From NCBI GenBank assembly GCA_964550425.1, contig CAZJZB010000001.1, positions 3,509 to 67,508 of the forward strand: a stretch of DNA of 64,000 nucleotides, given 5' to 3'. Below are positions 6,372-26,231 of this stretch, one piece after another. Origin of the DNA: an uncultured Candidatus Saccharibacteria bacterium. Its GTDB lineage: Bacteria > Patescibacteriota > Minisyncoccia > Phycocordibacterales > Phycocordibacteraceae. The notes beneath the pieces are model-generated. The model saw only the letters and a program-made list of their open reading frames with translations. It had not been told where the DNA came from and made no database searches. The translations under genes and the position numbers were made by a program. Position 1 is the stretch's first letter. Each line of letters opens with the position of its first letter.

Positions 6372-7117
6372 GCCCGCACCAGTTGCTTCATGAGTAGTGT
6401 AAAGGTATGAGCATCGACTGATGCGTGTCCGATGAGGAAGCCGTCGATCCGCGAGCTCGCCGCGAGCTCGCGGATGTTTTCCGGTTCAACCGAACCGCCG
6501 TAGAGGACAAGCGTGCGAGAAGCGTTTTTTCCGTGCAGGAGTTCCGCAAGCACTTTGCGGATGTATAACATCATCTCGGCAAGGTCGTTCGGCTGGATTG
6601 CAAGAGCGGCTGTCTTTCCGATTGCCCAGATGGGCTCGTAGGCAATAATGACCTTCACGCGTTCTTTTGGTGCGAGAGACCCAATCGCCTTTGTAAGTTC
6701 TTCACGTATGAAAGCAAGATAGCGGCCTTCATTATCGCGCTCATGTTCGCCGATGCACAGAATGGGTGTGAGTCCGTGAGCGAGAGAGTGGGAAAGTTTC
6801 TCGGCAATGATTACATCAGTATCGCCAGCCGCGCGTCGCTCAGAATGACCGATTATGGCGTAGGTGGCGCCCGCTGCCGCATATGCCTGCGCAGTCGCTT
6901 CGCCCGTCTTCGCGCCGCCGGTTGTGCGAGACACGTCTTGCGCCGCAAAAGCAACAGCCGATTTGTTTCTCGCCGTGAGCGCACTAAGAAGCGGCGAGGG
7001 CGGCGCGAGTACGATTTTACTCCCCGTTTTTTTCGCAAGTTTCTTGCTGAGCGCAAAGAGCTTCTTTGCTTTTTTTACATCTTCAACATACGCTTTCCAA
7101 TTCGCGATAATGAGCAT
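6368..7117 (-). CDS. tpiA: triosephosphate isomerase
   Basis: NWK, IGHSERR, AYEPIWAIGTG signatures; 4-nt overlap with pgk. Confidence 0.9.
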   Translation of the reverse strand: MLIIANWKAYVEDVKKAKKLFALSKKLAKKTGSKIVLAPPSPLLSALTARNKSAVAFAAQDVSRTTGGAKTGEATAQAYAAAGATYAIIGHSERRAAGDTDVIIAEKLSHSLAHGLTPILCIGEHERDNEGRYLAFIREELTKAIGSLAPKERVKVIIAYEPIWAIGKTAALAIQPNDLAEMMLYIRKVLAELLHGKNASRTLVLYGGSVEPENIRELAASSRIDGFLIGHASVDAHTFTLLMKQLVRA

Positions 7118-7124
7118 GACCTAC

Positions 7125-7168
7125 AGTATACCAGCCCGTCCATTAGTTAGAGGAAGGGCTGGTATACT
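7125..7168. promoter_or_regulatory. perfect 13-bp-stem inverted repeat in the divergent tpiA/pilin intergenic region
   Basis: AGTATACCAGCCC-N18-GGGCTGGTATACT. Confidence 0.4.
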
Positions 7169-7174
7169 TCTAAG

Positions 7175-7591
7175 GTGATTTTTGCAAACAAAAGACGCGG
7201 ATGTACCCAGCACTATTCTTATAGTGCTGGGTTCACCCTGATTGAAATGTTGGTCGCACTTTTCATCATAAGCGTGACGGTCGTTTTTGTGACTATTGTC
7301 ATCGGGACGATCAAAATTACTCGTGACGCAACGCACGAAAATGTCGCGTTTCGTATCGCGGAAAGCAAGATCGATGAACTTCGCGCGGGAGGATACGCCG
7401 CACTCCCGGCGAGCGGTTCGTTTTCCAATCCAGAACTCACGAAATTGCCGCAAGGAGTGGCGAGCACCAGTGTCACCGACTGGAATGCGCAGATAAAACA
7501 AGTGGCAGCGGGCGTCTCGTGGCAGGGCGCAGACGGCTTTATGCGATTTGTTTCGCTCACGACGCTTATCACCCAGTCGGGCGGTCTCTAA
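7175..7591 (+). CDS. prepilin-type N-terminal cleavage/methylation domain protein (pseudopilin)
   Basis: G|FTLIEMLVALFII class-III signal peptide motif. Confidence 0.7.
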   Translation: MIFANKRRGCTQHYSYSAGFTLIEMLVALFIISVTVVFVTIVIGTIKITRDATHENVAFRIAESKIDELRAGGYAALPASGSFSNPELTKLPQGVASTSVTDWNAQIKQVAAGVSWQGADGFMRFVSLTTLITQSGGL

Positions 7592-7593
7592 AT

Positions 7594-8226
7594 ATGCCCA
7601 GAGCTTTCACTACCAAGCGAGTGAGACAAAAGAAAAATTCTGATTTTTCTTTTGCGAACGAGCGCAGGGAGCAAACCCGGCTCCGCGGGTTTACACTCGT
7701 CGAGGTACTCGTCACCGTCGCCCTTTCCACGATCCTCATGCTCGCAATTTCACAGCTCTATGTCATATATGGGCGTATCATTATATTCCAACAATCGTCA
7801 ATCGCCGCCGCCTTGGATGGGAGCAATATTATGGACGCTGTTCGCACGGCAGGTCTGCAGGCAACACGGATTATTGCAACCCATACATTTTCCGGCACCA
7901 GTTATAATTCCGGAACAACGACCGCAATCTTTGAACTTCCCGCTATCGATGCTTCTGGCGCCATCATTCCTAATGGATACGATTATATCGGTATCTATGC
8001 TTCAAGCACGGACGCGTATCGCATTGTCGATGCTGCATCCGGCAGCGCTCGCGTCTCGGGGGAGAAGCGGCTGACGAACGTTCTGGGCGCACTCAGTTTT
8101 ACGTATGACAATTCGAACTTTCCTTCGGTAACAAGCGTTACGGTCAATGCGACAACAAGTGTCATATTAAGAGGAGAAGTGACGCAAACACATTTCCACG
8201 AGGATATCTATTTGCGAAATTTATGA
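7594..8226 (+). CDS. prepilin-type pseudopilin
   Basis: RGFTLVEVLVTVALS prepilin motif. Start taken at the first ATG after the upstream stop; ORF-track start 7519 overlaps the preceding gene. Confidence 0.65.
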   Translation: MPRAFTTKRVRQKKNSDFSFANERREQTRLRGFTLVEVLVTVALSTILMLAISQLYVIYGRIIIFQQSSIAAALDGSNIMDAVRTAGLQATRIIATHTFSGTSYNSGTTTAIFELPAIDASGAIIPNGYDYIGIYASSTDAYRIVDAASGSARVSGEKRLTNVLGALSFTYDNSNFPSVTSVTVNATTSVILRGEVTQTHFHEDIYLRNL

Positions 8227-9989
8227 AACGGCTCTCACAACCCTTCGCGCGCGGATCCATCCTCCTCCTTGCTCTTATCATGAGCTCCATCATCATGACC
8301 GTTACAGTTGGTTTTTTCAATTATTTTGGAAGCGCCGTGCGCGCCGAACGATACGCCTTCGCTTCGGCGCAGGCGCGCGCGCTTTCAGAAGCGGGTATCG
8401 ACAAAGCGGTCTACGAACTCAATCAAAACAGCAACTATTCGGGAGAAAGCGATATAGCCCTTGGCAATGGCACCTTTAGTATCTCGGTTGCAAGCATCGA
8501 CAGCAACTCGAAACGCATAACCGTTACCAGTTTTGTACCGAATAGTGTGCAGCCGACTGCGACAAAAGTCGTACAAACAACAGTCAGTATAGATTCATCC
8601 GTCGTATCGTTCCATTACGGGGTCCAAATAGGAGACGGCGGCGTTACGATGAGTAGCGGTTCTCAGATTATTGGCAATATATTTTCTAACGGTAATATTT
8701 CCGGAAGCGGCACTATAACCGGCGACGCGACGGTTGCGGTTGGTATCGATTCGGTCGCCGATCAGCAATGGACCGTACAGGACCGTTCTTTTAATGTAGG
8801 AGATGTGTCCGCAGATGCGGCAGTCGCGCAAGCCGTGAAGCCGTCGGTAAACGCTTCTCTTGCGGGAATAAAACTGAATATGAAAAAGGTTGGGAACCCT
8901 GGAGATCTCGTCGTCAAATTCGTGGCCGACAACAACGGGAAGCCGTCGACGACCGTGCTTGCCAGCGGTACGGTCCCGGCTTCGCTCGTCACCTCCTCCT
9001 ACGGTTTCGTCGATGTTACGCTCGATAGCACCCCTTCCCTTACGGCGAACCAGTCATACTGGATTATCGCGATCGCCCCCGTAAATGTGAGCAACTATTT
9101 CATCTGGGGATTGGATATCAATGAGGGGTACTCGCGCGGCGCCGCCAAACGCAGCAGCAACTGGAGTGCGCAGCCAGCATCATGGAGCAATATCACCGGA
9201 GATCTGAATTTCAAAATGTACATAAGCGGTATTTCAACCTCGCTCACCGGAGTGACGGTAAATGGAAATGCGTGGGCGTCTTCGCTTTCAGGATGTACCG
9301 TCGGCGGTAATGCGTCCTACCAGACCACTTCAAGTTGCACTGTTTCGGGTACGAGCACTTCCGGAGTAATTCCCGCCACGCCGGCGCCACTCCCCATTTC
9401 TGACGCGCAGATCGCGGAATGGGAGACGATTGCCGCAGCGGGAGGTACGATAGCGGGGCCGTATTCGATTTCCGGTACCCAGACATTAGGACCGAAAAAA
9501 ATCGATGGGGATCTCACTGTGACAAATGGAAACACCCTCATACTCTCGGGCCCCGTGTGGGTGAATGGGGATGTGGAGTTTTCAAATAACGCCACACTTC
9601 TCGTCTCGCCGAGTACCGGTACGGGCGGCGCGATAATTATTGCGGATGCGACGGGAAATACGGCAGTCAAAGGGGTCGTGAATATCTCGAACAACGTCAC
9701 CATCAACGGGAACGGAAGCACAAACAGTTTCCCAATGATCATAAGTACGAATACCGGATCGAATGCGATTGAATTATCCAATAATGCGTCCGGTGTCATC
9801 CTGTATGCGCCGTACGGCGGCGTAGAGGTCAGTAATGGCGCCAGTGCAAATCAAATAACGGCAAAACACCTGGAACTGGAAAATAATTCAAGCGTGACGT
9901 ATGTGAACGGACTGCAGAACGCCAGCTTCTCAAACGGTCCGGGCGGCTCGTGGACAGTAGTACCGGGCACCTACGCGATCACGAGATAA
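8223..9989 (+). CDS. large pilus-associated protein (PilX-like hydrophobic N-terminus, Gly/Asn/Thr/Ser-rich body)
   Basis: Translationally coupled to the pseudopilins (4-nt overlap). N-terminal hydrophobic segment, then repeated NGN/SGS-rich segments. Confidence 0.45.
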   Translation: MKRLSQPFARGSILLLALIMSSIIMTVTVGFFNYFGSAVRAERYAFASAQARALSEAGIDKAVYELNQNSNYSGESDIALGNGTFSISVASIDSNSKRITVTSFVPNSVQPTATKVVQTTVSIDSSVVSFHYGVQIGDGGVTMSSGSQIIGNIFSNGNISGSGTITGDATVAVGIDSVADQQWTVQDRSFNVGDVSADAAVAQAVKPSVNASLAGIKLNMKKVGNPGDLVVKFVADNNGKPSTTVLASGTVPASLVTSSYGFVDVTLDSTPSLTANQSYWIIAIAPVNVSNYFIWGLDINEGYSRGAAKRSSNWSAQPASWSNITGDLNFKMYISGISTSLTGVTVNGNAWASSLSGCTVGGNASYQTTSSCTVSGTSTSGVIPATPAPLPISDAQIAEWETIAAAGGTIAGPYSISGTQTLGPKKIDGDLTVTNGNTLILSGPVWVNGDVEFSNNATLLVSPSTGTGGAIIIADATGNTAVKGVVNISNNVTINGNGSTNSFPMIISTNTGSNAIELSNNASGVILYAPYGGVEVSNGASANQITAKHLELENNSSVTYVNGLQNASFSNGPGGSWTVVPGTYAITR

Positions 9990-10023
9990 TCGACACTCGC
10001 CTCGCTCGCTGAAGAGCTCGAAG

Positions 10024-11259
10024 CTAAATTGCCGATGAGAGCGAATAAATCGGCGCAATCATCGAGACCGCGAAGACACCGACGACCGTGCCGATGAGGA
10101 GCATAAGGACCGGTTCAATGATGGTCGAGAGATCTTTTGTCTTTGCCGCAACATCCGCTTCGTAAAACTCGGCGACTTGTTTCAACATCTCGGCGACTTT
10201 GCCGGTCTCTTCCCCCACCGCGACCATCTCACTCATTAAAATTGGATAGAGTTTCGTATGTTCAGCAAAGGATGTGGAAAGGAGTTCCCCTTTCTTTACA
10301 TGCATCTCGGCTTCTTCCACGACCCGTGCGAATGCATCCGCACGCACAACTTCTTTAGTTATAGAAAGTGCATCGAGCACCGGTACGCCAGTGGAAAGAA
10401 GCGATGAGAGAGTGCGGGATGCGCGCGCCGTATAGGTCTCGCGCACAAGTTCGCCGATAACCGGCAGATGAAGCGCTATCGCAAGCACTACCCTGCCTCC
10501 GAACCTTGAACGAATGAAAAGAACGCCGCCCACAAAGAACACGACAAGTCCCATAAGGACCAGAACGGCATGTGTCACCATAAAGTTCGATAGGGCGACG
10601 ATGGCGCGAGTCGCAAGCGGTATTTGTACCCCGAGTTGGATAAAGGTACTGGTCAATGTCGGTACCACGTAAATAAGCATCAATATACCGACAATGACGA
10701 CGGCGACAATAATGATTGCCGGATAGATCATCGCGCCTCTGATTTTACGCACCAATTCTTCCGCCCGCTCCATCTGAAGGGCGACGACAGTGAGCGCATC
10801 GGCAAGAGCGCCCGACTCCTCACCCGCTCTTACCATCGCGACAAATAACCCGGAGAATATCTTTGGATACTCAATTAACGCAGTATGGAACGACGATCCT
10901 TTTTTAATCGAGTCGGAAACCCCTAGCATAATCGCCTTCAAGCGCTTGTTGCTTGATTGCCGCTCGATGACCGAGAGTGCGCGTGAGAGCGAGAGACCGG
11001 CGGCAAGCATCGCAGAGAGATTCTTCGCCGTCCGAATAATCTCCGAGCGCTTCACGCCGGTGCCGATGCTGTACGAGAGCCACGCAGGAAGTTTAAGGAT
11101 TGTATCGCTTTCTTTAATTTCGACAACAACACTTCCCTCTTTCTGTATCTGGTCGTACACCGCGAAGCGCGAGGGCGCTTCGACAGTCCGTGTTTGATCA
11201 GGCACTCCCTCCTTCCGTACAGTGATGCGGAATTTCATACGCATAATCGTAGCATGCAA
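10024..11259 (-). CDS. pilC: type IV pilus assembly protein PilC / GspF family inner-membrane platform
   Basis: Two GspF-type repeats and three TM segments. Confidence 0.85.
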   Translation of the reverse strand: MHATIMRMKFRITVRKEGVPDQTRTVEAPSRFAVYDQIQKEGSVVVEIKESDTILKLPAWLSYSIGTGVKRSEIIRTAKNLSAMLAAGLSLSRALSVIERQSSNKRLKAIMLGVSDSIKKGSSFHTALIEYPKIFSGLFVAMVRAGEESGALADALTVVALQMERAEELVRKIRGAMIYPAIIIVAVVIVGILMLIYVVPTLTSTFIQLGVQIPLATRAIVALSNFMVTHAVLVLMGLVVFFVGGVLFIRSRFGGRVVLAIALHLPVIGELVRETYTARASRTLSSLLSTGVPVLDALSITKEVVRADAFARVVEEAEMHVKKGELLSTSFAEHTKLYPILMSEMVAVGEETGKVAEMLKQVAEFYEADVAAKTKDLSTIIEPVLMLLIGTVVGVFAVSMIAPIYSLSSAI

Positions 11260-11290
11260 ACAAACACAGAATCCATGTTACTATAAATCT

Positions 11291-11512
11291 ATGGCTACAT
11301 TTACCTCACACAATAAGCACAGCCCTCTGGCTTTTGAAGAAGCCCGAGAGAGTGTCGTCCGCCTTTCTACACTTAAGCCGTTTCTTACGTCCGCCGATGA
11401 AGAAACACTCTCAATTCTTATGGATAAAAAGCTTGTTGGTGATTTGCGGAAAAGCATCTCTGACGGCGGTATAGGGAAAGTGTCTTCTTTGCGCGGCATT
11501 CTATCGCGCTAG
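11291..11512 (+). CDS. putative Phd/YefM-like antitoxin
   Basis: C-terminal ETLSILMDKKLVGDLRKSI resembles the YefM tail; 14 bp upstream of a RelE/ParE toxin gene. Confidence 0.4.
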   Translation: MATFTSHNKHSPLAFEEARESVVRLSTLKPFLTSADEETLSILMDKKLVGDLRKSISDGGIGKVSSLRGILSR

Positions 11513-11525
11513 AAACACTTTTCTC

Positions 11526-11810
11526 ATGTATCGGCGGCTCGTTTCCAATTCAGCAAAACGCTCAATTAAAAAATTGCCACTCGCCGTCCGAAAAGCATTG
11601 TTTGAGGAGACCCAAGTTCTTGAACAAAATCCACATATCGGAGAAAAACTTTCCGGATCCCTCTCTTCTCTACACTCGTTTCATTTTTCAGTTAATGGCA
11701 TCACCTATCGCTCCGTCTACACGGTTGATGAAGAAAGACAAGAAATAACTTTCCATCTCGCCGGAGTTCGCGAAAACTTTTACGAGAAAGTGAAGCGGAT
11801 GTTCCGCTAA
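11526..11810 (+). CDS. type II toxin RelE/ParE family
   Basis: SAKRSIKKLP...NPHIGEKLSG...ITYRSVYTVDEERQEITFHLAGVREN fits the RelE/ParE fold pattern. Confidence 0.7.
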   Translation: MYRRLVSNSAKRSIKKLPLAVRKALFEETQVLEQNPHIGEKLSGSLSSLHSFHFSVNGITYRSVYTVDEERQEITFHLAGVRENFYEKVKRMFR

Positions 11811-12065
11811 TAAAAAACCGCACAATCCCCTCTCGGAAACTGCACGGCTGTTCGCGAAAATCTCCAGAGGGCTACGGATCAAAAGTTTTAAATGCAAATC
11901 AAGAAGCGGCGTTAGAGGAGAGAGATTTCCGCTTCTTTTCGCTTGCGCGGTCCGAAGCTCGCGCCGCTTCTGTTTTTGCTTTTGCAACTATGACCCATAG
12001 CCTTATAGAGACTTTCTATGAATATTGACCTTGTACACACCTTCAGGCAATGCAAAACACCTTGT

Positions 12066-12155
12066 AAATCTTCCACGCCTTGGTAGATTTACAATGATAA
12101 AGTCAGCAGATCCACACATTTGATACATTTTATGGTTTTACATACCATAAAACTA
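12066..12155. repeat. two short inverted repeats in an AT-rich non-coding stretch
   Basis: TGTAAATCT-N13-AGATTTACA and TTTTATGGT-ttta-cat-ACCATAAAA. Confidence 0.4.
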
Positions 12156-12183
12156 TGCAATTTACACACAAACAGTTTCCTTT

Positions 12184-12372
12184 TATTTCTGGCGAACGCA
12201 TACGGGCGCCGAGATAGATATCGTTCGCGAGTCCGGCGGCGCTATCGCTGCGATCGAATGCAAGTGGTCCAAGAGCGGTAAAGAGCCGGCCCTCTGGCGG
12301 CGGACCTACCCGGAGAGCACTTTCGCGACCATCAATCGCGACAATTATCTCCCCACACTTCTTGATCAGTGA
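12184..12372 (+). pseudogene. 3' remnant of an AAA-ATPase with a DUF4143-type C-terminal domain
   Basis: Frame gives ...TGAEIDIVRESGGAIAAIECKWSKSGKEPALWRRTYPESTFATINRDNY..., matching the conserved C-terminus of DUF4143 ATPases. No N-terminal ATPase body is present upstream. Confidence 0.45.
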
Positions 12373-12422
12373 TTCTTTGTTCCTTCAGGAACCGTTCAAT
12401 CGACATGTGGAAATAGCGATGG

Positions 12423-14171
12423 TTATTCGGTGACGGCGCGCATCACTTCCTCAATGCTGGTGATGCCGCGCGCGGCTTTGTAGAGACCGTCTTCAAACAT
12501 AGTGAGCATACCTTCCTTTTTTGCCTGCGCTTCTATAGCATCGCTTGTGCTCGAGCGAAGCATGATTTCTCTGATGGCGGGCGAGATAGCGAGAACTTCA
12601 TGAATACCAATGCGACTTTTGTAGCCATCTTCGCATTCGGCAGAGGGCAGTGGCCGATAGAATGGGATAGTGTCGATCGAGGAGTCCTTCTTCAGCAGTT
12701 TCTCGTCCCGAAGCGCCTTAAATGCGATGTCGAATTCCCCATCGCGCGCAATTTTTGCGCGCGTGGCTTTGTCTAGAGTGTACTCTTCTTTGCTCCCGCA
12801 AAGTTTTCGTACGAGCCGCTGTCCGATAATGACACGGATGGTCGAGACAAGAAGGAATGGTTCAACGCCCATATCAATAAGGCGCGGAATAGCGCCCGCG
12901 GCGCTGTTGGTGTGAATGGTTGAAAGTACCAGATGGCCGGTCAACGCAGCATTAATGGCGAGCGAGGCCGTTTCGCTGTCGCGGATTTCCCCGACCATGA
13001 TAATGTCCGGGTCCTGGCGCACAAGCGATCTCAGACCGTTGGCAAAAGTGAATCCTATTTGAGGATTCACTTGCGTTTGATTAACGCGCTTCATTTGATA
13101 TTCAATAGGGTCCTCAACTGTTGAAATGTTTACATCCGGCCGGTTTAAGATATCGAGCATGGTGTAGAGGGTCGTCGTTTTACCAGAGCCGGTCGGTCCC
13201 GATATGAGAATGATGCCAGTTGTCTGCTTGAGAGCATGGTGGATGCGCTCCATATTTTCGCCATGGAGACCGAGTGCCTCCATAGTGAAACCCTCGCCGG
13301 TTTCTCGCAGGAGGCGCATGACCGTCTTTTCGCCGAAAAAGGTTGGGAGGATCGACACGCGGAAGGACACCTTGTCGGCCTCGGTTTCCATCTTGAAACG
13401 GCCGTCCTGCGGAAGGCGTTTTTCGTCGAGTTTCAGATTGGAGAGTACTTTGATACGTGCGACGATGCCTGCCGCTGCCGCCCTCGGCAAGGTCATTGCG
13501 TCGTGGAGGATACCGTCAATGCGGTAACGGACCAGCACTTCGGTCTCCAAGGGTTCGATATGGATGTCCGAAGCGCCTTGCACGATGGCGTGTCGCAACA
13601 GTGTGTCGACGATGCGCACGATCGGCAAGTCCTCGGCCATTTTCTTCAGTTCACTGTCGGAAAGATCTCGGTTGTTCTCAGCGATGGCGCTGATTTTCCC
13701 CGCCTCGGTTGAAATAATGTCCCCGAACTCGTCCTTGAGCGACTTCTGATACTGCAGGAGTGCGGACTTGATACTCTCAGTGTCGGTCAATCGCGACAAT
13801 ATATTGAGCCCCGTCTTTTTGCGCACCGAATCGATTGATGCAAGGTCTTCGACATCGAGCATTCCCACTTCAAGCGAATCGCCCTCTTTCCGAAATGCAA
13901 TAATATTGTGCGTGCGTGCGATCGGTTCCGGAATGAGCGCGAGCACGTCGGGAGGGATGCGGCGCTCTTTCAAGTTCACGAAGGGGATGCCAAGCACATA
14001 GGCCTGAATGCGTCGCAGAGCATCCTCGGTCAGAAAGCCGCGCGAGACGAGGATATCGCCAAGTGGCTGCCCGCGTTTTGTCGCTTCGAGGGCGGCAGCA
14101 TCAATTTCCTTCTTGGCGACGATACCCGAATCGGTAATGAACTCTTTCATCTCGCTTTCCAACACGTGCAT
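12423..14171 (-). CDS. pilB: type IV pilus assembly ATPase PilB / GspE family
   Basis: GPTGSGKTTTLY Walker A, Asp/His boxes and an N-terminal GspE_N-like domain. Confidence 0.9.
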   Translation of the reverse strand: MHVLESEMKEFITDSGIVAKKEIDAAALEATKRGQPLGDILVSRGFLTEDALRRIQAYVLGIPFVNLKERRIPPDVLALIPEPIARTHNIIAFRKEGDSLEVGMLDVEDLASIDSVRKKTGLNILSRLTDTESIKSALLQYQKSLKDEFGDIISTEAGKISAIAENNRDLSDSELKKMAEDLPIVRIVDTLLRHAIVQGASDIHIEPLETEVLVRYRIDGILHDAMTLPRAAAAGIVARIKVLSNLKLDEKRLPQDGRFKMETEADKVSFRVSILPTFFGEKTVMRLLRETGEGFTMEALGLHGENMERIHHALKQTTGIILISGPTGSGKTTTLYTMLDILNRPDVNISTVEDPIEYQMKRVNQTQVNPQIGFTFANGLRSLVRQDPDIIMVGEIRDSETASLAINAALTGHLVLSTIHTNSAAGAIPRLIDMGVEPFLLVSTIRVIIGQRLVRKLCGSKEEYTLDKATRAKIARDGEFDIAFKALRDEKLLKKDSSIDTIPFYRPLPSAECEDGYKSRIGIHEVLAISPAIREIMLRSSTSDAIEAQAKKEGMLTMFEDGLYKAARGITSIEEVMRAVTE

Positions 14172-14247
14172 ATGCGATGAAGTATAGCGCGCTTCGCCCC
14201 TACAGGGTACGCAGTAGCACCTATTAACACTGTCATACCTACACTCA

Positions 14248-14264
14248 TTGACAATGAGTGAGTG
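14248..14264. promoter_or_regulatory. perfect palindrome ACTCATTG-A-CAATGAGT containing a TTGACA -35-like hexamer
   Basis: Lies in the divergent pilB / 14332 gene intergenic region. Confidence 0.3.
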
Positions 14265-14331
14265 GAGAATAAACTATAGAAGTTAATACAATTGCCAGAA
14301 ATTATTCATTATTTACAGTCGCACATAATGT

Positions 14332-15375
14332 ATGGGAAATAATCTTATAGTAAAAATCGTCGTCGGAGCAGCATCCTTCGGAGTGGTCATGCCAGTATTT
14401 GCACATGGCGAAGAAACCACACCCGTTCCTCCGCCTATCAAACCGACCATTTTCCAAGAAGTAAAAGATATTCAACAGGATGTTCGGGATACTCGTCAAG
14501 AAATGAAAAAGGAGATAAAAGACGTGCGACAGGATACGCGCAAGGAAATAAAAAATGTCCGCCAGGAAGCAAAGCAGGAATTCAAGGATGTGCGGCAAGG
14601 CGCCCGTGAAGAATTTAAGAACACCAAGCAGGAAATGAAGACCGACGTAAAGGAACTTCGCGATACTGCGCGTGGAGAAATGGAAAATATCAGAAAAACA
14701 GGCGATACGGCAGAAATTCAAGCAAAACGAGAAGAATTGAAAGCGGCTATGGAGCAAAAAAGAGAAGAGTTCAAGCAGAAATTGGATGACTCAAGGAGGG
14801 ATGCAAAGGCGCGTATGGATGTGAAAAAGCTAGAACTGAAAAATCGCCTTGTAAAAATAAAGGACGAAAAGAAAAAGGCAGTCGTTGAGAAAATTGACGG
14901 CCGACTTGACGAGCTGAACGCGAAGCGCCTCGAGCATTTTTCCGAAGTTCTCGTGAAAATCGGCGCGGTTATGGAAAAAATAAATATTCGGGTTGAAAAA
15001 GCGGCGGCTAGAGGGCTTGATGTTAGCGCGGTGCGAACGGCCTTGACTCTAGCCGATACGGCAATAGCAGCCAGCAAAACGGCCATTGTAAGCCAGACCG
15101 CAAAAACATACATTATCACGGTTACGGATGAAGCAACGCTTCGCCAGAACGTCGAGACAGCGCGGCAGGCCCTCCGGACAGATCTGAAGGCGGTTGAACA
15201 GACCGTAAAAGATGCGCGTGAGGCCGTACGAAAGGCAGCAACAACTCTTGCGGGCATTCGGGGCATTAATGACGCTGATACGCAATCAGCCACCGCACCA
15301 GTTACTGCAGAAACAGGAACGACGGAAACCCAATCCCAATCCCAAACCGGCACAACCGAAACCGTTACACAATAA
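14332..15375 (+). CDS. secreted coiled-coil protein with tandem ~11-residue charged repeats
   Basis: Signal peptide, then repeats (K/R)(E/Q)(E/M)(I/F)K(D/N)VRQ... Confidence 0.55.
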   Translation: MGNNLIVKIVVGAASFGVVMPVFAHGEETTPVPPPIKPTIFQEVKDIQQDVRDTRQEMKKEIKDVRQDTRKEIKNVRQEAKQEFKDVRQGAREEFKNTKQEMKTDVKELRDTARGEMENIRKTGDTAEIQAKREELKAAMEQKREEFKQKLDDSRRDAKARMDVKKLELKNRLVKIKDEKKKAVVEKIDGRLDELNAKRLEHFSEVLVKIGAVMEKINIRVEKAAARGLDVSAVRTALTLADTAIAASKTAIVSQTAKTYIITVTDEATLRQNVETARQALRTDLKAVEQTVKDAREAVRKAATTLAGIRGINDADTQSATAPVTAETGTTETQSQSQTGTTETVTQ

Positions 15376-15403
15376 AAGGTACTATCACTAACAACTCTCG
15401 TAT

Positions 15404-15631
15404 ATGAACAACAATGTTATCGTCCTCGCGGTCGTTATCGTTCTTATCGCTCTTGGCGTGTGGGCTTGGAATTCATCCTCGTATCAACCAAGCACGACGG
15501 AGACATATCCTGCAACGTCTCCGACAACGGAAGATACTACGACCGCCATTACCGATGATTTGTCAGGCATCCAGGTAGAAACGAGCGATGCGGACCTCAA
15601 CGCGTTGGACACGGATCTTCAAAATCTCTAA
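15404..15631 (+). CDS. small membrane-anchored protein (Thr/Ser/Asp-rich tail)
   Basis: One N-terminal TM helix; 75 aa. Confidence 0.4.
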   Translation: MNNNVIVLAVVIVLIALGVWAWNSSSYQPSTTETYPATSPTTEDTTTAITDDLSGIQVETSDADLNALDTDLQNL

Positions 15632-15651
15632 TCCCCGAACAGTAAAAAAGA

Positions 15652-15677
15652 AACCGGGCGCGCCGTTGGCGCGCCCG
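15652..15677. terminator. GC hairpin (rho-independent on the minus strand)
   Basis: GGGCGCGCC-gttg-GGCGCGCCC with an A-run on + (T-run on -). Confidence 0.6.
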
Positions 15678-15769
15678 TTCTCTTCATAATTTCAGTTCAT
15701 GTATAGAAAAGTGTAACGCGCCGAAAGCATGACCTCGGCGCGTTATGCGAAATTGCAGGGTGTGGGATA

Positions 15770-15967
15770 TCATCCGGCGTCGTACATACGAACGTATCCG
15801 CCGCACTTTGTGCAATGTACGTCGCCATCATGCCACGTCGAGTCGTAGTTCCGCACTTCCTGCTCGGCCGGAGGAGCTCCGCAACCCGGACAATTTGGTG
15901 AAGAAACTGCAAGTGCATGAAGGACTTCCACGTGAACAAACAACAGTGATTTTTTACTCCTTCTCAT
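15770..15967 (-). CDS. small zinc-ribbon protein (CxxC...CxxC)
   Basis: CPGCG ... CTKCGG; terminated by the 15652 hairpin. Confidence 0.35.
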   Translation of the reverse strand: MRRSKKSLLFVHVEVLHALAVSSPNCPGCGAPPAEQEVRNYDSTWHDGDVHCTKCGGYVRMYDAG

Positions 15968-16014
15968 AGCGAATCCCTCCTTTTTTCTCCTCGCACCCTA
16001 CTCCTCAACTTCGA

Positions 16015-16043
16015 TTGACGCAACTTTCTCTTTTTGCTATCAT
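16015..16043 (+). promoter_or_regulatory. sigma70-like promoter upstream of nusA
   Basis: TTGACG - 17 nt - TATCAT. Confidence 0.45.
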
Positions 16044-16105
16044 GCGCCTACTTGAATGCCCCATAGGGGCTTTCTTATTAAAAAAGTGCGACATACATAT
16101 TCCAT

Positions 16106-22490: not shown

Positions 22491-22500
22491 AACAATTTTG

Positions 22501-22572
22501 TGCGGGCGGCGGGAGTCGAACCCGCGCTGACTGCTTGGAAGGCAGCCGTCATAGCCGTTAGACCACGCCCGC
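22501..22572 (-). tRNA. tRNA-Gly (anticodon TCC); CCA not encoded
   Basis: Hand-folded cloverleaf: acceptor GCGGGCG/CGCCCGC, anticodon stem GCTGC/GCAGT, loop CTTCCAA, T-arm GCGGG-TTCGACT-CCCGC. Confidence 0.75.
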
Positions 22573-22686
22573 GCTTGCCCTTCGTAGCTCAAAGAGCGTA
22601 GTAGGGTTAGTGCGAGAATACCAGGAAACGAGTGTCCGTGCGAAGTATTTTGCACACTGTCTTTCAAAACGATTGTGCGCTAGCGT

Positions 22687-23835
22687 ATGGGGATGAACCA
22701 CCTTGCGCCCTATCTCGGCATCGTAACTGCCCTTTTTATTGGTATTTTTATCGCCGCTTTTTATAGCACTCACACCACTTCGCCCGTTTCAACAACCACA
22801 GTTCCTACATCCTCTCCAACGCTTTCTGTAGCACCACATCCCCCTCCGCTCCCGCCTCCATCGCAAGAGAATATCGCGACAAGTACCACATCATCCACGA
22901 TTCCCGTTCAAAAGAAAAAAGTTATTGCGCCTTCGGATCCAATCGTATCTACATCATCTGCTTCACAACCGGTCTCTATTTCAACAACGCTCACCCAATC
23001 TGAAAGTGCAGCACTCGATGCTGCCGCATCGGCGCTGCGTAGCGCACTCGTGAATATCATCTGCAATGTTTCTGCCGGAGGCGGCTTGCGCTCCATTAGC
23101 GGCAGCGGCGTTTTCATCGATCCTAAAGGCATCATCCTCACCAACGCGCATATTGCACAACATTTTCTCCTAGCCGACCGTAACGTTTCCTGCGTCATTC
23201 GCTCGGGAAGTCCTGCTACGGAGAGGTATGCTGCCGCACTTATATATATTTCACCTGATTGGCTTAAAGTGAATGCGGGAACACTTACCGAGGCGCTGCC
23301 AAGCGGGACCGGCGAATACGACTTCGCGCTCCTCGCGGTCTCTAAAAGCGCTACGACCGCGGTACTTCCCGCCGTATTCCCTTTCGTACCGCTCGCCACC
23401 ATACCGTCCTCTTCCAAAACACCAGTCGTCATTGCTTCCTACGGCGCGCAATTTCTCGAATCGAATCAGGTGCGGTTCTCTCTCTTCCCAACGATCGTTT
23501 TCGGTTCCGTGAAAGATGTATTTACTTTTGCTGTGAATAGTATCGATGTATTGGCGCTGGGCGGATCGGCTGCCGCGCAGGAGGGCTCTTCAGGCGGGGG
23601 CGTGGTCGATGCGGCCGGCGCTCTCATCGGCACTATCACTACCAGTACGGTTAAGGGCGCGACCAATACGCGTTCTTTAAACGCCATTACGGCATCTTAT
23701 ATTCGTGCCGAGTATGCAAGTGAGACAGGGGACGCTCTCGATCTTCTTCTTTCTAAACCGACCACCACTTCCATCAATGATTTCGCGCCGCAGATACCGG
23801 CTCTTGAATCAATCCTCACCGCTCATTTGCCTTAA
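22687..23835 (+). CDS. membrane-anchored trypsin-like (S1/chymotrypsin-fold) serine protease
   Basis: TM anchor, Pro/Ser/Thr linker, GSGVFIDPKGIILTNAHI (His) ... GSSGGGVVD (Ser). Confidence 0.6.
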   Translation: MGMNHLAPYLGIVTALFIGIFIAAFYSTHTTSPVSTTTVPTSSPTLSVAPHPPPLPPPSQENIATSTTSSTIPVQKKKVIAPSDPIVSTSSASQPVSISTTLTQSESAALDAAASALRSALVNIICNVSAGGGLRSISGSGVFIDPKGIILTNAHIAQHFLLADRNVSCVIRSGSPATERYAAALIYISPDWLKVNAGTLTEALPSGTGEYDFALLAVSKSATTAVLPAVFPFVPLATIPSSSKTPVVIASYGAQFLESNQVRFSLFPTIVFGSVKDVFTFAVNSIDVLALGGSAAAQEGSSGGGVVDAAGALIGTITTSTVKGATNTRSLNAITASYIRAEYASETGDALDLLLSKPTTTSINDFAPQIPALESILTAHLP

Positions 23836-23929
23836 CTATCGGGCCGCCGAGAATTGGACTCGGTCTACCTGCTCCCAAAGCAGGCGTACTACCGGCATAC
23901 TCCGGCCCGTTGCTCCGCACTGTAACACC

Positions 23930-24328
23930 CTATACGATTTGTGGTAGGTAGGTGATGCGCGCTGCACCGTCCCGACGTCGCAGCCAGACGAGACAACCGT
24001 CTATCTGCCACTCCCCTTCCCAATTTTTCTCAGAGACATACCACTCTCCCGTCCGCGCGACCTTCCGAATTTTTGCCGCATGAAGATTAAGAGATGGGTC
24101 ATACGCATCTTCCCCTTTACATTCCGCCAGAGGGAATTCGTCGGCAAGTACCGTCTTCACTTCAACAAAGTGCAGCGTACTTTCTTTCTCTGCGATTATG
24201 TCGAGCTCACCGGTCTTGCGCGCAAAATTTCGATCTCTGATAAAGAAACCGTGCCGTCGTAAGTACTCGGCAGCTACATTCTCGCCAAAGGTACCCACTT
24301 CCTTACGAGTTTTAGAAGATAGATCCAC
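23930..24328 (-). CDS. yraN: YraN-family (UPF0102) endonuclease-like protein
   Basis: GELDIIAEKESTLHFVEVK core. Confidence 0.7.
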   Translation of the reverse strand: MDLSSKTRKEVGTFGENVAAEYLRRHGFFIRDRNFARKTGELDIIAEKESTLHFVEVKTVLADEFPLAECKGEDAYDPSLNLHAAKIRKVARTGEWYVSEKNWEGEWQIDGCLVWLRRRDGAARITYLPQIV

Positions 24329-24460
24329 GGCCTTTAGAAATATGGCTCATTCGTTGAGTATACTCTAGGACCACTCTTAGAAATAGTTATTAGACGCATG
24401 TCCTTTATCCCCAGTATCCCCAATGTTATCCACTTACGACACGGAACCAAAAGACACACA

Positions 24461-24486
24461 AAAATGGCTCAATCGAGCCATTTTTG
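24461..24486 (-). terminator. hairpin terminator downstream of tRNA-Gly(GCC) and its trailer
   Basis: AAAATGGCTC-aatc-GAGCCATTTT, followed by a T-run on the minus strand. Confidence 0.5.
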
Positions 24487-24639
24487 CGTTTAAGAAACTT
24501 TAAGTCAAATCTATCTTTCGGTGCGGGGGAGAACCGTGATTACACTTTCGGCCACGGATAATTTTCTCGCCGCCGCTCGAAAATTTCCTCGGCCCCGCCT
24601 CGCGGTTTTGCCTGTTGGCAAAACATCGCTCCGGCATTC

Positions 24640-24657
24640 GATTCTCCCTACTCGTCC
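24640..24657 (+). repeat. 18-nt inverted copy of the tRNA-Gly(GCC) 3' end (T-loop to acceptor)
   Basis: TTCGATTCTCCCTACTCG is identical to tRNA positions on the opposite strand, 20 nt beyond the tRNA 3' end. Confidence 0.7.
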
Positions 24658-24676
24658 CATCCTCGCTATGCTCGTC

Positions 24677-24750
24677 TGGTGCGAGTAGGGAGAATCGAAC
24701 TCCCATCATCTGATTGGCAACCAGATGTTCTACCATTGAACCATACCCGC
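24677..24750 (-). tRNA. tRNA-Gly (anticodon GCC); CCA encoded
   Basis: Acceptor GCGGGTA/TACTCGC, D-arm GTTC/GAAC, anticodon loop TTGCCAA, T-arm GGGAG-TTCGATT-CTCCC, then ACCA. Confidence 0.8.
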
Positions 24751-24970
24751 GCTAGGCGACATGATACCATGTCGCCAGTTTTTATTTCCAGTGCAGTATT
24801 CTTGAATTAGTCCGAACGCATTTCGCCGCCTGCGGCGGTAAAGAAGTCCCCCCGCGAAAATTCGGAAAGGCGGCGGGCCGCGCCGCTGATTCAGCAGAAT
24901 CACCTACTGGGTGACAATTTCAAGTTTTTCTTTGGCGGCATTCAATTATGAATTTACAAAATAAATACAA

Positions 24971-25853
24971 CTACGCCTTAGGAGTTTCAATATTTCCTCC
25001 CTCAATCGGGTTTACTTCCGGCTTTATTTCACCTGGCGGAATTTCACCCTCCGGAACTTCTAACTTTTCCTCTGGCTTAGGTTCTTCGGGCTTCTCCTCT
25101 TCCAGCTTCTGTTTTTCTTCTTCCAATTTTTTGTCCACGCGCTCGGTTGCTTCTTTGGTTAAGTCCTCATCAAATTTTTTCAAAAGGTCTGGTAATGCTT
25201 CAAGAATTTTTGGCAGTAGTTTAATTCCTTCTTTGAAAGCTTTCGCCAAAGATTGCGCCATTTCCGGATTGAGAGAACCCATTGACTTGCTTTCAACATT
25301 TCGTCCCTCAGGAGTTTTCCCGCTCTTAAAAATGCTTTCAAAGTCACGGGGATTAAGTCCCTCAAATTCCTTGAACACTTCGTCAAGTTTTTCTTGTAGA
25401 ATTTTTTCTTTTTCTTCGCGGATAAGCCGTTCTTTTTCCTGTTGGCTGATAAGTTCCTCTTTTTGTTTTTCTAATCCTTCTTGTTCGGCTTTGAGTTTTT
25501 CCAATTTATCTTTTTCTGAAAACACACTTGGCGGGTCTTCTTCTGTTGGCGGAAGTCCAAGTTTTTCTCTCGCGGCGTTTAGGGCAGATTTTGTTCCTTC
25601 AACAGATTCTGATAAACGAGTTATTTCTTCTTGCTTGGCCTTGGCTTCGCCCTCTAAATTTTTAAGCTGTTCTTCCGGCGATAATTCAGGTTCTTCTGCT
25701 ACTTGTTCTTGCCCTTCTTCTGCTTTTAATTTTTCCAATTCTTCCGGTGTAAGTTCGCCCTCCAGTTTTTTCCCAGCATTAACATCAGCACCAACCTCGT
25801 TGGGATTTAGTTCTGCATTATTCGTATTTGGAGCACCTTCAAATTTTGGCATA
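24971..25853 (-). CDS. Glu/Lys-rich coiled-coil protein (hypothetical)
   Basis: EK-rich heptads. The Ser-rich + strand ORF 24948..26213 is its codon-complement shadow. Start chosen at MPKFEG. Confidence 0.45.
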
Positions 25854-25986
25854 GTTTTTGTTGAATGTATTAAAAAATTTTCTTCCCCCAAAATTAAAAT
25901 ATGGTTCGAGCCGATGTTTTTCTCCGGGTTCTTTTGCGGTTTTGAGCGGTATTGTTCGCACTTCCATTTTAGCATAATTCCTTTCT

Positions 25987-26003
25987 GGTGCGCCCGCCAG
26001 GAC
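25987..26003. repeat. direct partial copy of the tRNA-Arg 3' end, including a CCA
   Basis: TGGTGCGCCCGCCAGGA compared with the tRNA 3' end TGTGCGCCCGCCAGGA at 26141..26156; ~135 bp apart. Confidence 0.55.
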
Positions 26004-26142
26004 CGCGATTACGCTTATCGAAACTTACAGTTTCAGTACACCTTGCGGATTTTCTGTTCGCTTCGCTTCATAAAATGCTCGCAAGGTCTTCGATTCCTGT
26101 TCGCACGCCTCCCAGGCGTGCTTCGGGGCACATTCTCGCTTT

Positions 26143-26215
26143 GCTCGTATGTGCGCCCGCCAGGAATCGAACCCGGAACCTCTTCGTCCGAAGCGAAGCG
26201 CTCTATCCGTTGAGC
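26143..26215 (-). tRNA. tRNA-Arg (anticodon TCG); CCA not encoded
   Basis: Acceptor GCGCCCG/CGGGCGC, D-arm GCTC/GAGC, anticodon stem CTTCG/CGAAG with loop CTTCGGA, T-arm CCGGG-TTCGATT-CCTGG. Confidence 0.75.
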
Positions 26216-26231
26216 TACGGGCGCGTAGCGA

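Follow-up and report, generated by a model that had tools for sequence, protein, structure and literature searches.

A variable islet with a maintained toxin–antitoxin-like module and an internally deleted candidate defence ATPase gene between pilC and pilB of a Kaiserbacteria-like genome

In cultivated CPR bacteria, type IV pili have a central part in host attachment (PMC11623550), which makes it of interest how the expression of pilB and pilC is organised. ComZ of Thermus thermophilus (6qvi) is a competence-associated tip pilin (PMC6561018). GspK/XcpX are tip pseudopilins. PDC-S01 of PADLOC (AAA_14 and DUF4143 PD-(D/E)XK domains; COG1373) is an unvalidated defence candidate (PMC12988326). 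Type II toxin–antitoxin (TA) modules of the RelE/ParE superfamily (PF15781) and variable islets or defence islands at core-gene junctions are the other known systems with which the present locus was compared.

The locus lies in a 64-kb stretch of DNA, here called the window, which was analysed as a whole. The host genome is Kaiserbacteria-like (CPR). The gene order is pil1, pil2, a 588-aa pilin gene, pilC, an islet and pilB, with both pilC and pilB on the minus strand. The islet covers 1178 bp (11245–12422) and is located on the opposite strand between these two genes. Profile searches and a repeat scan recovered all elements that an earlier note on this DNA had described, with the same or nearly the same coordinates.

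The pilus genes are intact. PilC, the platform protein (10024–11244, minus strand, 406 aa), matched PF00482 (T2SSF) in two stretches with E = 1.6e-52 and the GspF/PilC families of NCBIfam. Its true start is most likely 11244, as called for the 406-aa protein in the independent assembly L001, and not 11259. A 411-aa PilC with a TTG start was rejected: an exact look-up found no record of it, and gene calling gives 406 aa. The assembly ATPase PilB (12423–14171, minus strand, 582 aa) matched PF00437 (T2SSE; E = 1.6e-126), MshEN and TIGR02538 (E = 8e-162). Full-length alignments with relatives gave 84%–89% identity for PilB and 66%–77% for PilC. PilB, with its MshEN N-domain ahead of the T2SSE ATPase, and PilC, with its two T2SSF repeats, are both full-length and thus have the features of the assembly core of a type IV pilus or type II secretion system. 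Two minor pseudopilins on the plus strand carry the N_methyl motif PF07963: pil1 (7175–7591, 138 aa; E = 9e-7), with a weak PilV/GspH/GspI-like match at the N-terminus, and pil2 (7594–8226, 210 aa; E = 1.5e-6).

The 588-aa gene (8223–9989, plus strand) comes after these two small pseudopilins, an order that recalls GspI-J-K-type tip complexes. The protein had been described as lacking a recognisable domain, which is true of sequence HMMs: N_methyl was unmatched in the Pfam scan, the GspK match at the N-terminus was weak (E = 0.0012), and PilX_N matched 3 of 35 relatives. It is not true of the predicted fold. The structure prediction gave a pilin fold of an N-terminal helix and a sheet, with a large inserted beta-solenoid and a beta-sandwich insert at about residues 173–337. 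This model confidently points to a ComZ/GspK-like tip-type minor pilin and, in its structure, fits the candidate tip protein of the earlier note. Differences to ComZ are the sequence, with about 16% identity, and the extra beta-sandwich, which is missing from shorter variants in close relatives. An ‘RG-x-ILL’ motif, seen by eye, is conserved in the family and is a candidate for the prepilin-peptidase cleavage/methylation motif. Tip location and the binding of DNA or host are putative functions, by analogy with ComZ. The model offers ComZ, a tip DNA receptor, as a definite structural analogue with which the large minor pilin of the group can be compared.

The arrangement of pilB and pilC in relatives argues for a derived split. 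In an unbiased genome scan, the gap between the pilB stop and the pilC ATG was about 1–12 nt in 12 of 16 crown-clade relatives. Seven of the junctions of at most 12 bp were read directly and consist of TAA or TAG, 1–5 nt and the ATG. In most outgroups, pilB and pilC are also adjacent or nearly so, and co-directional with minor pilins. A tightly packed pilB–pilC pair is thus the ancestral arrangement on the evidence of these comparisons, and the suggested past insertion into the pilus operon gains support from this synteny.

The islet starts with two small genes on the plus strand. The second (11526–11810) encodes an intact ParE-like toxin of 94 aa, which matched PF15781 with E = 7.2e-16 and 58.4 bits (cutoff 28), residues 7–90 covering profile positions 4–87 of 87. 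Weak similarity to the RelE and YoeB structures was also found. The first (11291–11512) encodes a 73-aa protein of an unclassified helical family with 34 homologues. The genes are co-oriented with a gap of 14 nt. The name YefM-like, given to the 73-aa protein in the earlier note, found no support. Searches with this protein in Pfam, NCBIfam, PADLOC and, by phmmer, the PDB had no matches, and none of the 34 homologues has a Pfam domain. The PhdYeFM profile matched 0 of 31 members of the family, and the family profile had 0 matches to the PDB at E <= 10. Membership in Phd/YefM was rejected on these profile and PDB searches. The AlphaFold model is all-helical (helices 14–31, 34–59 and 67–71) and of low confidence (pLDDT 65, pTM 0.32). 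One of the predicted helices carries the conserved DEETLSILMDKKL.

The pair resembles type II modules of the RelE/ParE superfamily in three respects: the toxin scores well above the HMM cutoff, it is preceded at a distance of 14 nt by a small gene of the same orientation, and both genes travel together across genomes and contexts. It differs in the upstream partner, which matches none of the antitoxin families Phd/YefM, RHH, HTH or AbrB, is modelled as all-helical with low confidence and lacks a DNA-binding domain that could be recognised. Judged from sequence, the two genes are a type II toxin–antitoxin-like module with a candidate antitoxin.

Six other Kaiserbacteria lineages (L078, L080, L081, L082, L131 and L133) have the TA pair at the pilC-adjacent site. 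It is full-length in all of these except L080, which has a truncated toxin. Counting all sites, the 73-aa gene has a full-length toxin gene behind it in the window, L078, L081, L082, L085, L088, L131, L132 and L133; in L090, a homologue of the 73-aa gene is present and the toxin is absent. The spacing between pilC and the antitoxin gene is 46–50 bp across the TA-bearing lineages. The dN/dS of the pair is 0.05–0.20 at a dS of 0.6–1.3, with 0.10–0.20 for the 73-aa gene and 0.055–0.14 for the toxin, indicating purifying selection. Elsewhere, the pair is flanked by EamA and cysS in Giovannonibacteria, has T4SS genes nearby in L088 and occupies another context in L132. These patterns suggest a TA pair that is old, maintained and stable at the pilC site, and mobile on a larger scale that includes unrelated contexts in other CPR. 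The earlier note had included the pair in a past insertion that later decayed. Its recurrence at this position in six further lineages and the low dN/dS contradict decay or a recent arrival of the pair. The note had also named a stable layout among relatives as an argument against its own reading; such a layout exists, for the TA part only.

The shared site, the conserved spacing and motifs, and the purifying selection could also indicate that pilC–TA–pilB is the stable ancestral layout of the group, that no insertion took place and that the TA-like pair is a dedicated pilus regulator. We consider this improbable. The pilB and pilC genes are adjacent or nearly so in three quarters of the close relatives scanned (12/16) and in most outgroups, the pair also occurs in unrelated contexts (L132, L085 and L088; toxin identity up to 84%), and the toxin is a bona fide member of a ParE-like family. 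As to ancestry, this explanation is largely refuted. A single gain of the TA pair is unproven, since the neighbour-joining tree of PilB and PilC has very short internal branches and places TA-positive loci close to the TA-negative loci L003 and L045. TA loss or recombinational replacement at the junction is possible. Because the TA and ATPase genes themselves served as queries for the loci that carry them, the frequencies of TA and ATPase are biased upward.

The 46-bp divergent intergenic region between pilC and the antitoxin gene (11245–11290) has two conserved blocks in an alignment of seven lineages. At 3–6 nt ahead of the pilC ATG, TACGATTAT is invariant and TGCTACGATTAT is present in 6 of the 7 lineages. 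An ATAGTA-type block is located near the antitoxin ATG. The region is a putative pilC promoter by its conservation; a consensus promoter scan called no pilC promoter in it. Behind the toxin gene, the terminator scan detected a hairpin with a U-run specific to the minus strand (11816–11849). Read from 11849 to 11816, it forms 15 pairs (dG −21.5, z −3.9), followed by UUUUUUAUU. No such fold forms on the plus strand (dG −6.6, z 0.07). About 36–39 bp at this place are conserved in L078, L079, L081 and L009. Hairpin and U-run together predict an intrinsic, rho-independent terminator.

The spacer beyond is AT-rich, as noticed before, though mildly, with 41.8% GC against 50.4% in the window. The two short inverted repeats reported for it are present. 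Their positions are 12062–12094 and 12128–12152, and the islet has further hairpins at 11816–11849 and 11884–11989. The long imperfect repeat at 11884–11989 has 28-nt arms with 79% complementarity (dG −45.5, z −3.8); it matched no Rfam family and had no homologue in the fetched loci except the same-strain L001. The short hairpin at 12062–12094 (14-nt arms, 93% complementary; dG −12.9, z −5.2) was found only in the window genome and is not conserved in L092, L093 and L094. The repeat at 12128–12152 has 9-nt arms (z −2.8). Among 133 fetched loci, only same-strain assemblies had a homologue of 11852–12096. An Rfam search of 11000–12600 at E <= 1 yielded just one sRNA match far below threshold (19 bits; gathering score 270).

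Between the spacer and pilB are the remains of an ATPase gene on the plus strand. The 3′ remnant (12178–12372) has the last 63 codons and the stop, and no usable start. It matched PF13635 with E = 9e-7 and 29.2 bits (cutoff 28.1) at profile positions 131–160 of 160, and the PADLOC model PDLC04789 (PDC-S01) with E = 4.3e-15 at positions 313–372 of 375. Amino acid identity is 95% to L092 and, over 63 aa, 71% to the intact 375-aa ATPase of L009, which matches the PDC-S01 model over the full length (E = 2e-131). Of the DUF4143 (PD-(D/E)XK) domain, the remnant retains no more than the final 30 profile positions. The agreement of Pfam, PADLOC and orthologue alignments confirms that the piece is a true remnant of a DUF4143 gene, as had been proposed; it starts at 12178 and not at 12184. 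Translation of the 3′ remnant was rejected, as its frame lacks a start codon and the ORF list has no entry for it.

The gene had been described as a C-terminal stump. Its C-terminal codons are there, and its own beginning is also preserved. The upstream region (12120–12154, plus strand) includes the inverted repeat at 12128–12152 and a promoter-like site, TTGATA-17-TACCAT, in the promoter scan. It is 84% identical to positions 7035–7091 of L092, directly upstream of an intact ATPase. The alignment to L092 and L094 identified a 5′ remnant of an ATG and 6 codons (12155–12175, plus strand), with MQFTHKQ in the window, MQFTRKQ in L092 and MKFIRSQ in L094. Beyond the junction, this frame runs out of frame and stops after 20 codons, and the 3′ remnant is out of frame with the ATG at 12155. 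Promoter, ATG and 7 codons are retained and continue, in another frame, at codon ~311, which points to an internal deletion. A tblastn search of the spacer with the intact L009 protein (word size 2) found residues 311–373 only; residues 1–310, with the N-terminal P-loop AAA_14 domain, had no tblastn match in the window, in which residues 8–310 have left no trace, and no intact paralogue was found elsewhere in its 64 kb.

The window fragment matches the C-terminal end of the PDC-S01 model. Unlike that system, the window copy is a pseudogene, which has lost its P-loop domain and most of DUF4143 and whose two ends are in different frames. From these alignments, the internal out-of-frame deletion in the PDC-S01-type ATPase (AAA_14 and DUF4143) is estimated at about 904 bp. 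The 3′ remnant has a dN of 0.03 to L092, with saturated dS. Its dN/dS is 0.036 to L093, compared to 0.057 for the intact pair L092–L093; this lack of relaxation suggests a recent deletion. Intact orthologues adjoin pilC in L092 and in L094/L009. In L092 and L094, the ATPase follows pilC directly, on the opposite side of the hairpin compared to the window.

The contig is metagenome-derived and the Pfam score of 29.2 barely exceeds the cutoff of 28.1, so it was considered whether the remnant is an artefact of assembly or binning, or else an ORF that arose by chance and resembles DUF4143 spuriously. This is scarcely credible. The independent assembly L001 (Logan SRR8863434) has 100% amino acid identity for every window protein query from pil2 through the remnant into pilB, and the artefact was dropped on this agreement. 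A second assembly, L002 (ENA), has 100% amino acid identity for every window protein query across the pilC 5′ end and the TA pair, and its DNA is identical to the window over the first 90 bp past parE. Chance is contradicted by the PADLOC match (E = 4e-15), by 95% and 71% amino acid identity to orthologues that are intact and occupy the same locus, and by the nucleotide alignment with the orthologue, which continues into the promoter.

TA pair, spacer and ATPase remnant are adjacent, in the same orientation and below average in GC content, which would fit one recent composite mobile element that decays as a whole and whose insertion truncated the 5′ end of the ATPase. Such an origin is very unlikely. 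The TA pair is intact, old and shared, and the cargo differs in every lineage. The ATPase retains its own promoter and ATG and was therefore not truncated by an incoming element. No integrase, transposase or terminal repeats appeared in the ORF list or when the TA pair and the ATPase remnant were scanned against Pfam, and the window with its islet has no duplicate of the pilC 5′ end. A TA–spacer–ATPase unit with bounding repeats in unrelated contexts was absent from the 133 loci.

Quite probably, the islet was instead built in layers at a derived junction, with a maintained TA module and variable cargo that includes the deleted ATPase. Starting from a packed pilB–pilC pair, the junction of one Kaiserbacteria subclade would have become a variable islet. 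The first, old and maintained layer would be a mobile type II TA-like module, which entered divergently 46–50 bp from the pilC start and is followed by the minus-strand terminator hairpin. The second layer would be variable cargo. Between toxin and pilB, the lineages have different genes (TrmB, NYN and ORFs of 125, 203 and 47 aa); tblastn found no remnants of the cargo of other lineages (TrmB, NYN, 125-aa, 203-aa, DinJ and YafQ) in the window islet. In the window, the second layer would be the single-gene candidate phage-defence ATPase, lately inactivated by the out-of-frame deletion of ~904 bp. The islet states among relatives are empty, a 79-bp palindrome, secreted-protein genes, TA with varied cargo, intact PDC-S01 and freshly deleted PDC-S01.

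Like known variable islets and defence islands, the islet is polymorphic in presence among close relatives, has lineage-specific cargo (TA modules, nuclease-type genes and regulators) and comes with gene remnants and short target duplications, namely the copies of the pilC 5′ end in L080 and L094. Unlike those, it has no integrase or tRNA and occupies a gap of 1–5 nt within a translationally coupled pilB–pilC pair in the type IV pilus operon of a CPR bacterium. Apart from the unusually well-defined hotspot at which it sits, it is a variable islet of an ordinary kind. A further idea takes the gap as a dedicated Kaiserbacteria hotspot for cassette exchange, with recombination anchored in the pilC 5′ end as the duplicates of L080 and L094 suggest, and with the back-to-back promoter of the TA pair possibly serving a leaderless pilC. 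We regard this as rather unlikely. The cargo of such a hotspot would comprise TA modules, PDC-S01, TrmB, NYN and secreted proteins. If it were true, TA autoregulation would be linked with how the pilus platform protein is expressed.

These findings do not overturn the current understanding. The pilus genes are intact, and pilC is probably no longer coupled to pilB in translation and transcription. We infer that the expression of pilC depends on the short conserved region that it has in common with the TA promoter. A maintained TA module would have broken a coupled pilB–pilC pair across a whole Kaiserbacteria subclade, and pilC presumably has a new promoter shared with the TA pair. The series of islet states among relatives may serve to study how ultrasmall genomes acquire and lose defence genes.

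The genome is, judged by its proteins, Candidatus Kaiserbacteria-like (Paceibacterota, CPR), and MAGs of Kaiserbacteria and Paceibacterota provide the closest named homologues of the window proteins. In gene order, pgk and tpiA (both minus strand) precede the plus-strand minor pilin genes: pil1 (7175–7591) and pil2 (7594–8226), each with a prepilin N_methyl motif, and the 588-aa ORF p588 (8223–9989). The genes pilC (10024–11244) and pilB (12423–14171) are on the minus strand and encode full-length proteins in comparison with relatives. An islet on the opposite strand fills exactly 11245–12422, from the pilB stop codon to the pilC ATG. It contains a 73-aa ORF (11291–11512, plus strand) and a ParE-like toxin gene (11526–11810, plus strand), together the TA pair, and 612 bp without a long ORF between toxin and pilB. 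An independent assembly of the same strain (L001) had 100% amino acid identity for every queried protein from pil2 via the ATPase remnant of the islet to pilB. A second assembly (L002) had the same identity across the pilC 5′ end and the TA pair, and its DNA was 100% identical over the first 90 bp past parE. Further on, the minus strand carries four tRNA genes (Gly-TCC, Pro-TGG, Gly-GCC and Arg-TCG) scattered across 3.7 kb at 22500–26224.

Beyond pilB, a variable stretch of 1.9 kb is followed by nusA on the plus strand. This pilB–nusA spacer (14172–16105) is a second variable slot, with only 158 bp in locus L003. In the window, it encodes a 347-aa Lys/Glu-rich repeat protein (14332–15375) with an N-terminal hydrophobic segment and a weak LeoBC match in PADLOC (E = 0.0017), and a 75-aa membrane-anchored ORF (15404–15631). 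Other lineages have GIY-YIG, NYN or TrmB genes in this slot.

Loci of relatives were obtained by a p588-family scan with one genome per species, resulting in 75 loci; the junction was compared in 16 crown-clade loci with both pilB and pilC. The two genes essentially abut in 12 of them. The sequence of seven of these junctions was inspected: pilB ends with TAA or TAG, and the pilC ATG follows after 1–5 nt, the signature of a translationally coupled pair. More distant relatives mostly have pilB and pilC adjacent or nearly so, co-directional with the minor pilins. The comparison identifies contiguity as ancestral and the split as derived. The observation in the earlier note, pilC and pilB separated by these elements, was confirmed. 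Its interpretation held in part: the split is a past insertion, but the TA pair resides at the same junction in six other lineages and, contrary to the note, is not part of a decay.

The profile match places the toxin clearly in the ParE-like family (PF15781, 58 bits vs. a cutoff of 28). The designation of its partner as YefM-like found no support, as Pfam, NCBIfam, PADLOC, phmmer against PDB and a family profile against PDB gave no match for the 73-aa protein. Its AlphaFold model is all-helical at low confidence (pLDDT 65). The 34 homologues are nearly all ~73 aa long, and none has a Pfam domain. Among ten homologues examined for genomic context, six are at the pilC junction and four elsewhere. 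At the junction, the gene is divergent from pilC (L078, L080, L081, L082–84, L131 and L133). The antitoxin start is 48–50 bp from pilC in five of these lineages; in L080, the two are separated by an inserted gene and a pilC 5′ duplicate of 47 bp. The next gene is ParE-like and full-length in all but L080, where it is truncated, with pilB 1–2 kb beyond. This residence holds for either orientation of the minor-pilin block. Elsewhere, Giovannonibacteria have the pair between EamA and cysS, L088 has it close to conjugative T4SS genes and L132 in another context; L090 has a homologue of the 73-aa gene without toxin. The pair is therefore broadly a mobile module and, in one Kaiserbacteria subclade, a fixed junction resident. 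Both genes have dN/dS ratios of 0.05–0.20 at dS of 0.6–1.3 (flanking pilB and pilC: dS ~1.5–2.1), which indicates purifying selection and an old, maintained layer of the islet. Locus architecture and TA conservation are established.

The second component of the islet is an ATPase pseudogene. The DUF4143 similarity proposed earlier was verified: the fragment matches PF13635 (E = 9e-7) and the PADLOC candidate system PDC-S01 (E = 4e-15) and is 95% identical to the intact ATPase of L092. PDC-S01, an ATPase fused to a PD-(D/E)XK domain, is very common and among the candidate systems with experimental validation mostly pending (PMC12988326, PMC3424549). Intact orthologues adjoin pilC in two relatives, L092 and L009/L094. 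The latter protein (375 aa, AAA_14 and DUF4143) is 71% identical to the remnant and in L094 sits between pilC and pilB; pilB was not detected within the L092 locus. The remnant is a true one, but not the bare C-terminal stump suggested. Nucleotide alignment of 12120–12175 with L092 7035–7091 revealed 84% identity. The aligned stretch contains a TTGACA-like −35 box, an inverted repeat and a −10-like box (TACCAT), followed by the ATG with the initial codons (MQFTHKQ in the window, MQFTRKQ in L092). The segment 12178–12372 represents ATPase codons 311–373 and the stop. As both 5′ region and 3′ codons are kept, the lesion is an internal deletion: 218 bp of ~1122 bp are left and ~904 bp are gone, out of frame. 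What is left is an ORF of 20 codons and a 3′ piece that cannot be translated, with no trace of residues 8–310 in the window. The 3′ piece has a dN of 0.03 with saturated dS to L092 and a dN/dS of 0.036 to L093. Its constraint is on a par with that of the intact pair L092–L093 (dN/dS 0.057), so these alignments date the deletion as recent compared with the split of these lineages. On further metagenome contigs from CPR, PDC-S01-type ATPase genes are often degraded or duplicated, with internally deleted copies (L109–L111), a lone C-terminal piece (L119, residues ~311–372) and convergent pairs (L103, L122), which suggests a rapid turnover of the family.

Islets of other lineages reveal the same kind of turnover at the junction. 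L006 has a 79-bp insert (12956–13034) exactly between pilB stop and pilC ATG with a perfect 14-nt inverted repeat, CCCCGTATGACAAC...GTTGTCATACGGGG, resembling a MITE or hairpin footprint at the same hotspot. Inserts of 0.7–1.8 kb in L004, L010 and L011 carry unrelated genes without Pfam match, either a pair of ORFs for secreted proteins or an ORF of 159 aa. The signal-peptide ORF pairs of L004 (13151–14654) and L010 (13077–14397) are homologous (361/287 aa and 173/150 aa), lie between pilB and pilC co-oriented with the pilus genes and may encode pilus-associated accessory proteins. The L009/L094 islet (12971–15330 and 6630–9112, respectively) comprises a TrmB-family 3′ remnant, the intact ATPase, an 87–92-bp diverged duplicate of the pilC 5′ end, the conserved hairpin also seen at 11816–11849 of the window and a DinJ/RelB-YafQ pair, thus a different TA module from that of the window. 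In L080, a TrmB-like gene is followed by a 47-bp exact copy of the pilC 5′ end, which adjoins the antitoxin. These duplicates fit an integration by recombination anchored in the pilC 5′ end. Neither the ORF list nor a Pfam scan of TA pair and ATPase remnant revealed an integrase or transposase. Variable TA/defence-type islets at conserved core-gene junctions are a known kind of feature; this one has a neatly defined site and combines an antitoxin partner that is unclassified with a PDC-S01 gene bearing a fresh deletion.

Close relatives have the minor-pilin block (pil1-pil2-p588, 7175–9989) in one or the other orientation between tpiA and pilC. In L131 and L133, pilC is followed instead by a 566-aa CarboxypepD_reg-like gene. 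The divergence of the block greatly exceeds that of its flanks: in L081 and L082, p588 is only 36–37% identical, in contrast to 71–87% for pilC, pilB and tpiA. It has the appearance of a cassette that can be replaced and inverted. Sequence HMMs gave nothing above threshold for p588 of the window; a GspK N-terminal match is weak. Among 35 relatives, 8 have DUF7305 and 3 PilX_N. An inserted beta-sandwich domain (residues ~173–337, window 8739–9233) resembles a phage phi812 baseplate protein and is polymorphic for presence or absence: in close relatives, variants in L036, L037, L043–45, L078, L080 and L082 align solely to residues 1–172 and ~335–588 and, where genes were called, have 436–462 aa. 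ComZ is a competence-associated pilin with a proposed position at the pilus tip and a proposed role in DNA binding (PMC6561018). The modelled likeness to ComZ supports the proposal of p588 as a tip protein; adhesin and DNA receptor are both possible functions of this candidate.

The spacer of the islet was described as AT-rich with two inverted repeats. It has a GC content of 41.8% (window 50.4%) and four hairpin-forming repeats. The hairpin at 11816–11849 folds on the minus strand only (dG −21.5, z −3.9, then a U-run; plus strand −6.6, z 0.07). It is kept beside the TA pair in L078, there at the 3′ end of a minus-strand 125-aa gene, and in L081, and also occurs in L009/L094. A long imperfect inverted repeat (11884–11989; dG −45.5 kcal/mol, z −3.8) has no Rfam family and no homologue in any fetched locus except same-strain L001. 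The hairpin at 12062–12094 (z −5.2) is specific to this genome, and the repeat at 12128–12152 is part of the conserved ATPase promoter region.

The split probably ended the coupling of pilC to pilB. The minus-strand hairpin at 11816–11849 is predicted to stop transcripts from pilB, and pilC would then have to be transcribed from the 46-bp region common with the TA pair. Two blocks in this region have stayed conserved in seven lineages although synonymous divergence is saturated. The first, TACGATTAT, is invariant in all seven (TGCTACGATTAT in six) and located 3–6 nt ahead of the pilC ATG; the second, ATAGTA/TACTAT, is a few nt ahead of the antitoxin ATG. They may be back-to-back −10 elements of two leaderless transcripts, a hypothetical assignment because a consensus promoter scan called neither. 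Type II TA complexes usually autoregulate their own operon. If the TA complex does so at the 46-bp region, pilC might, speculatively, be co-regulated with the TA pair.
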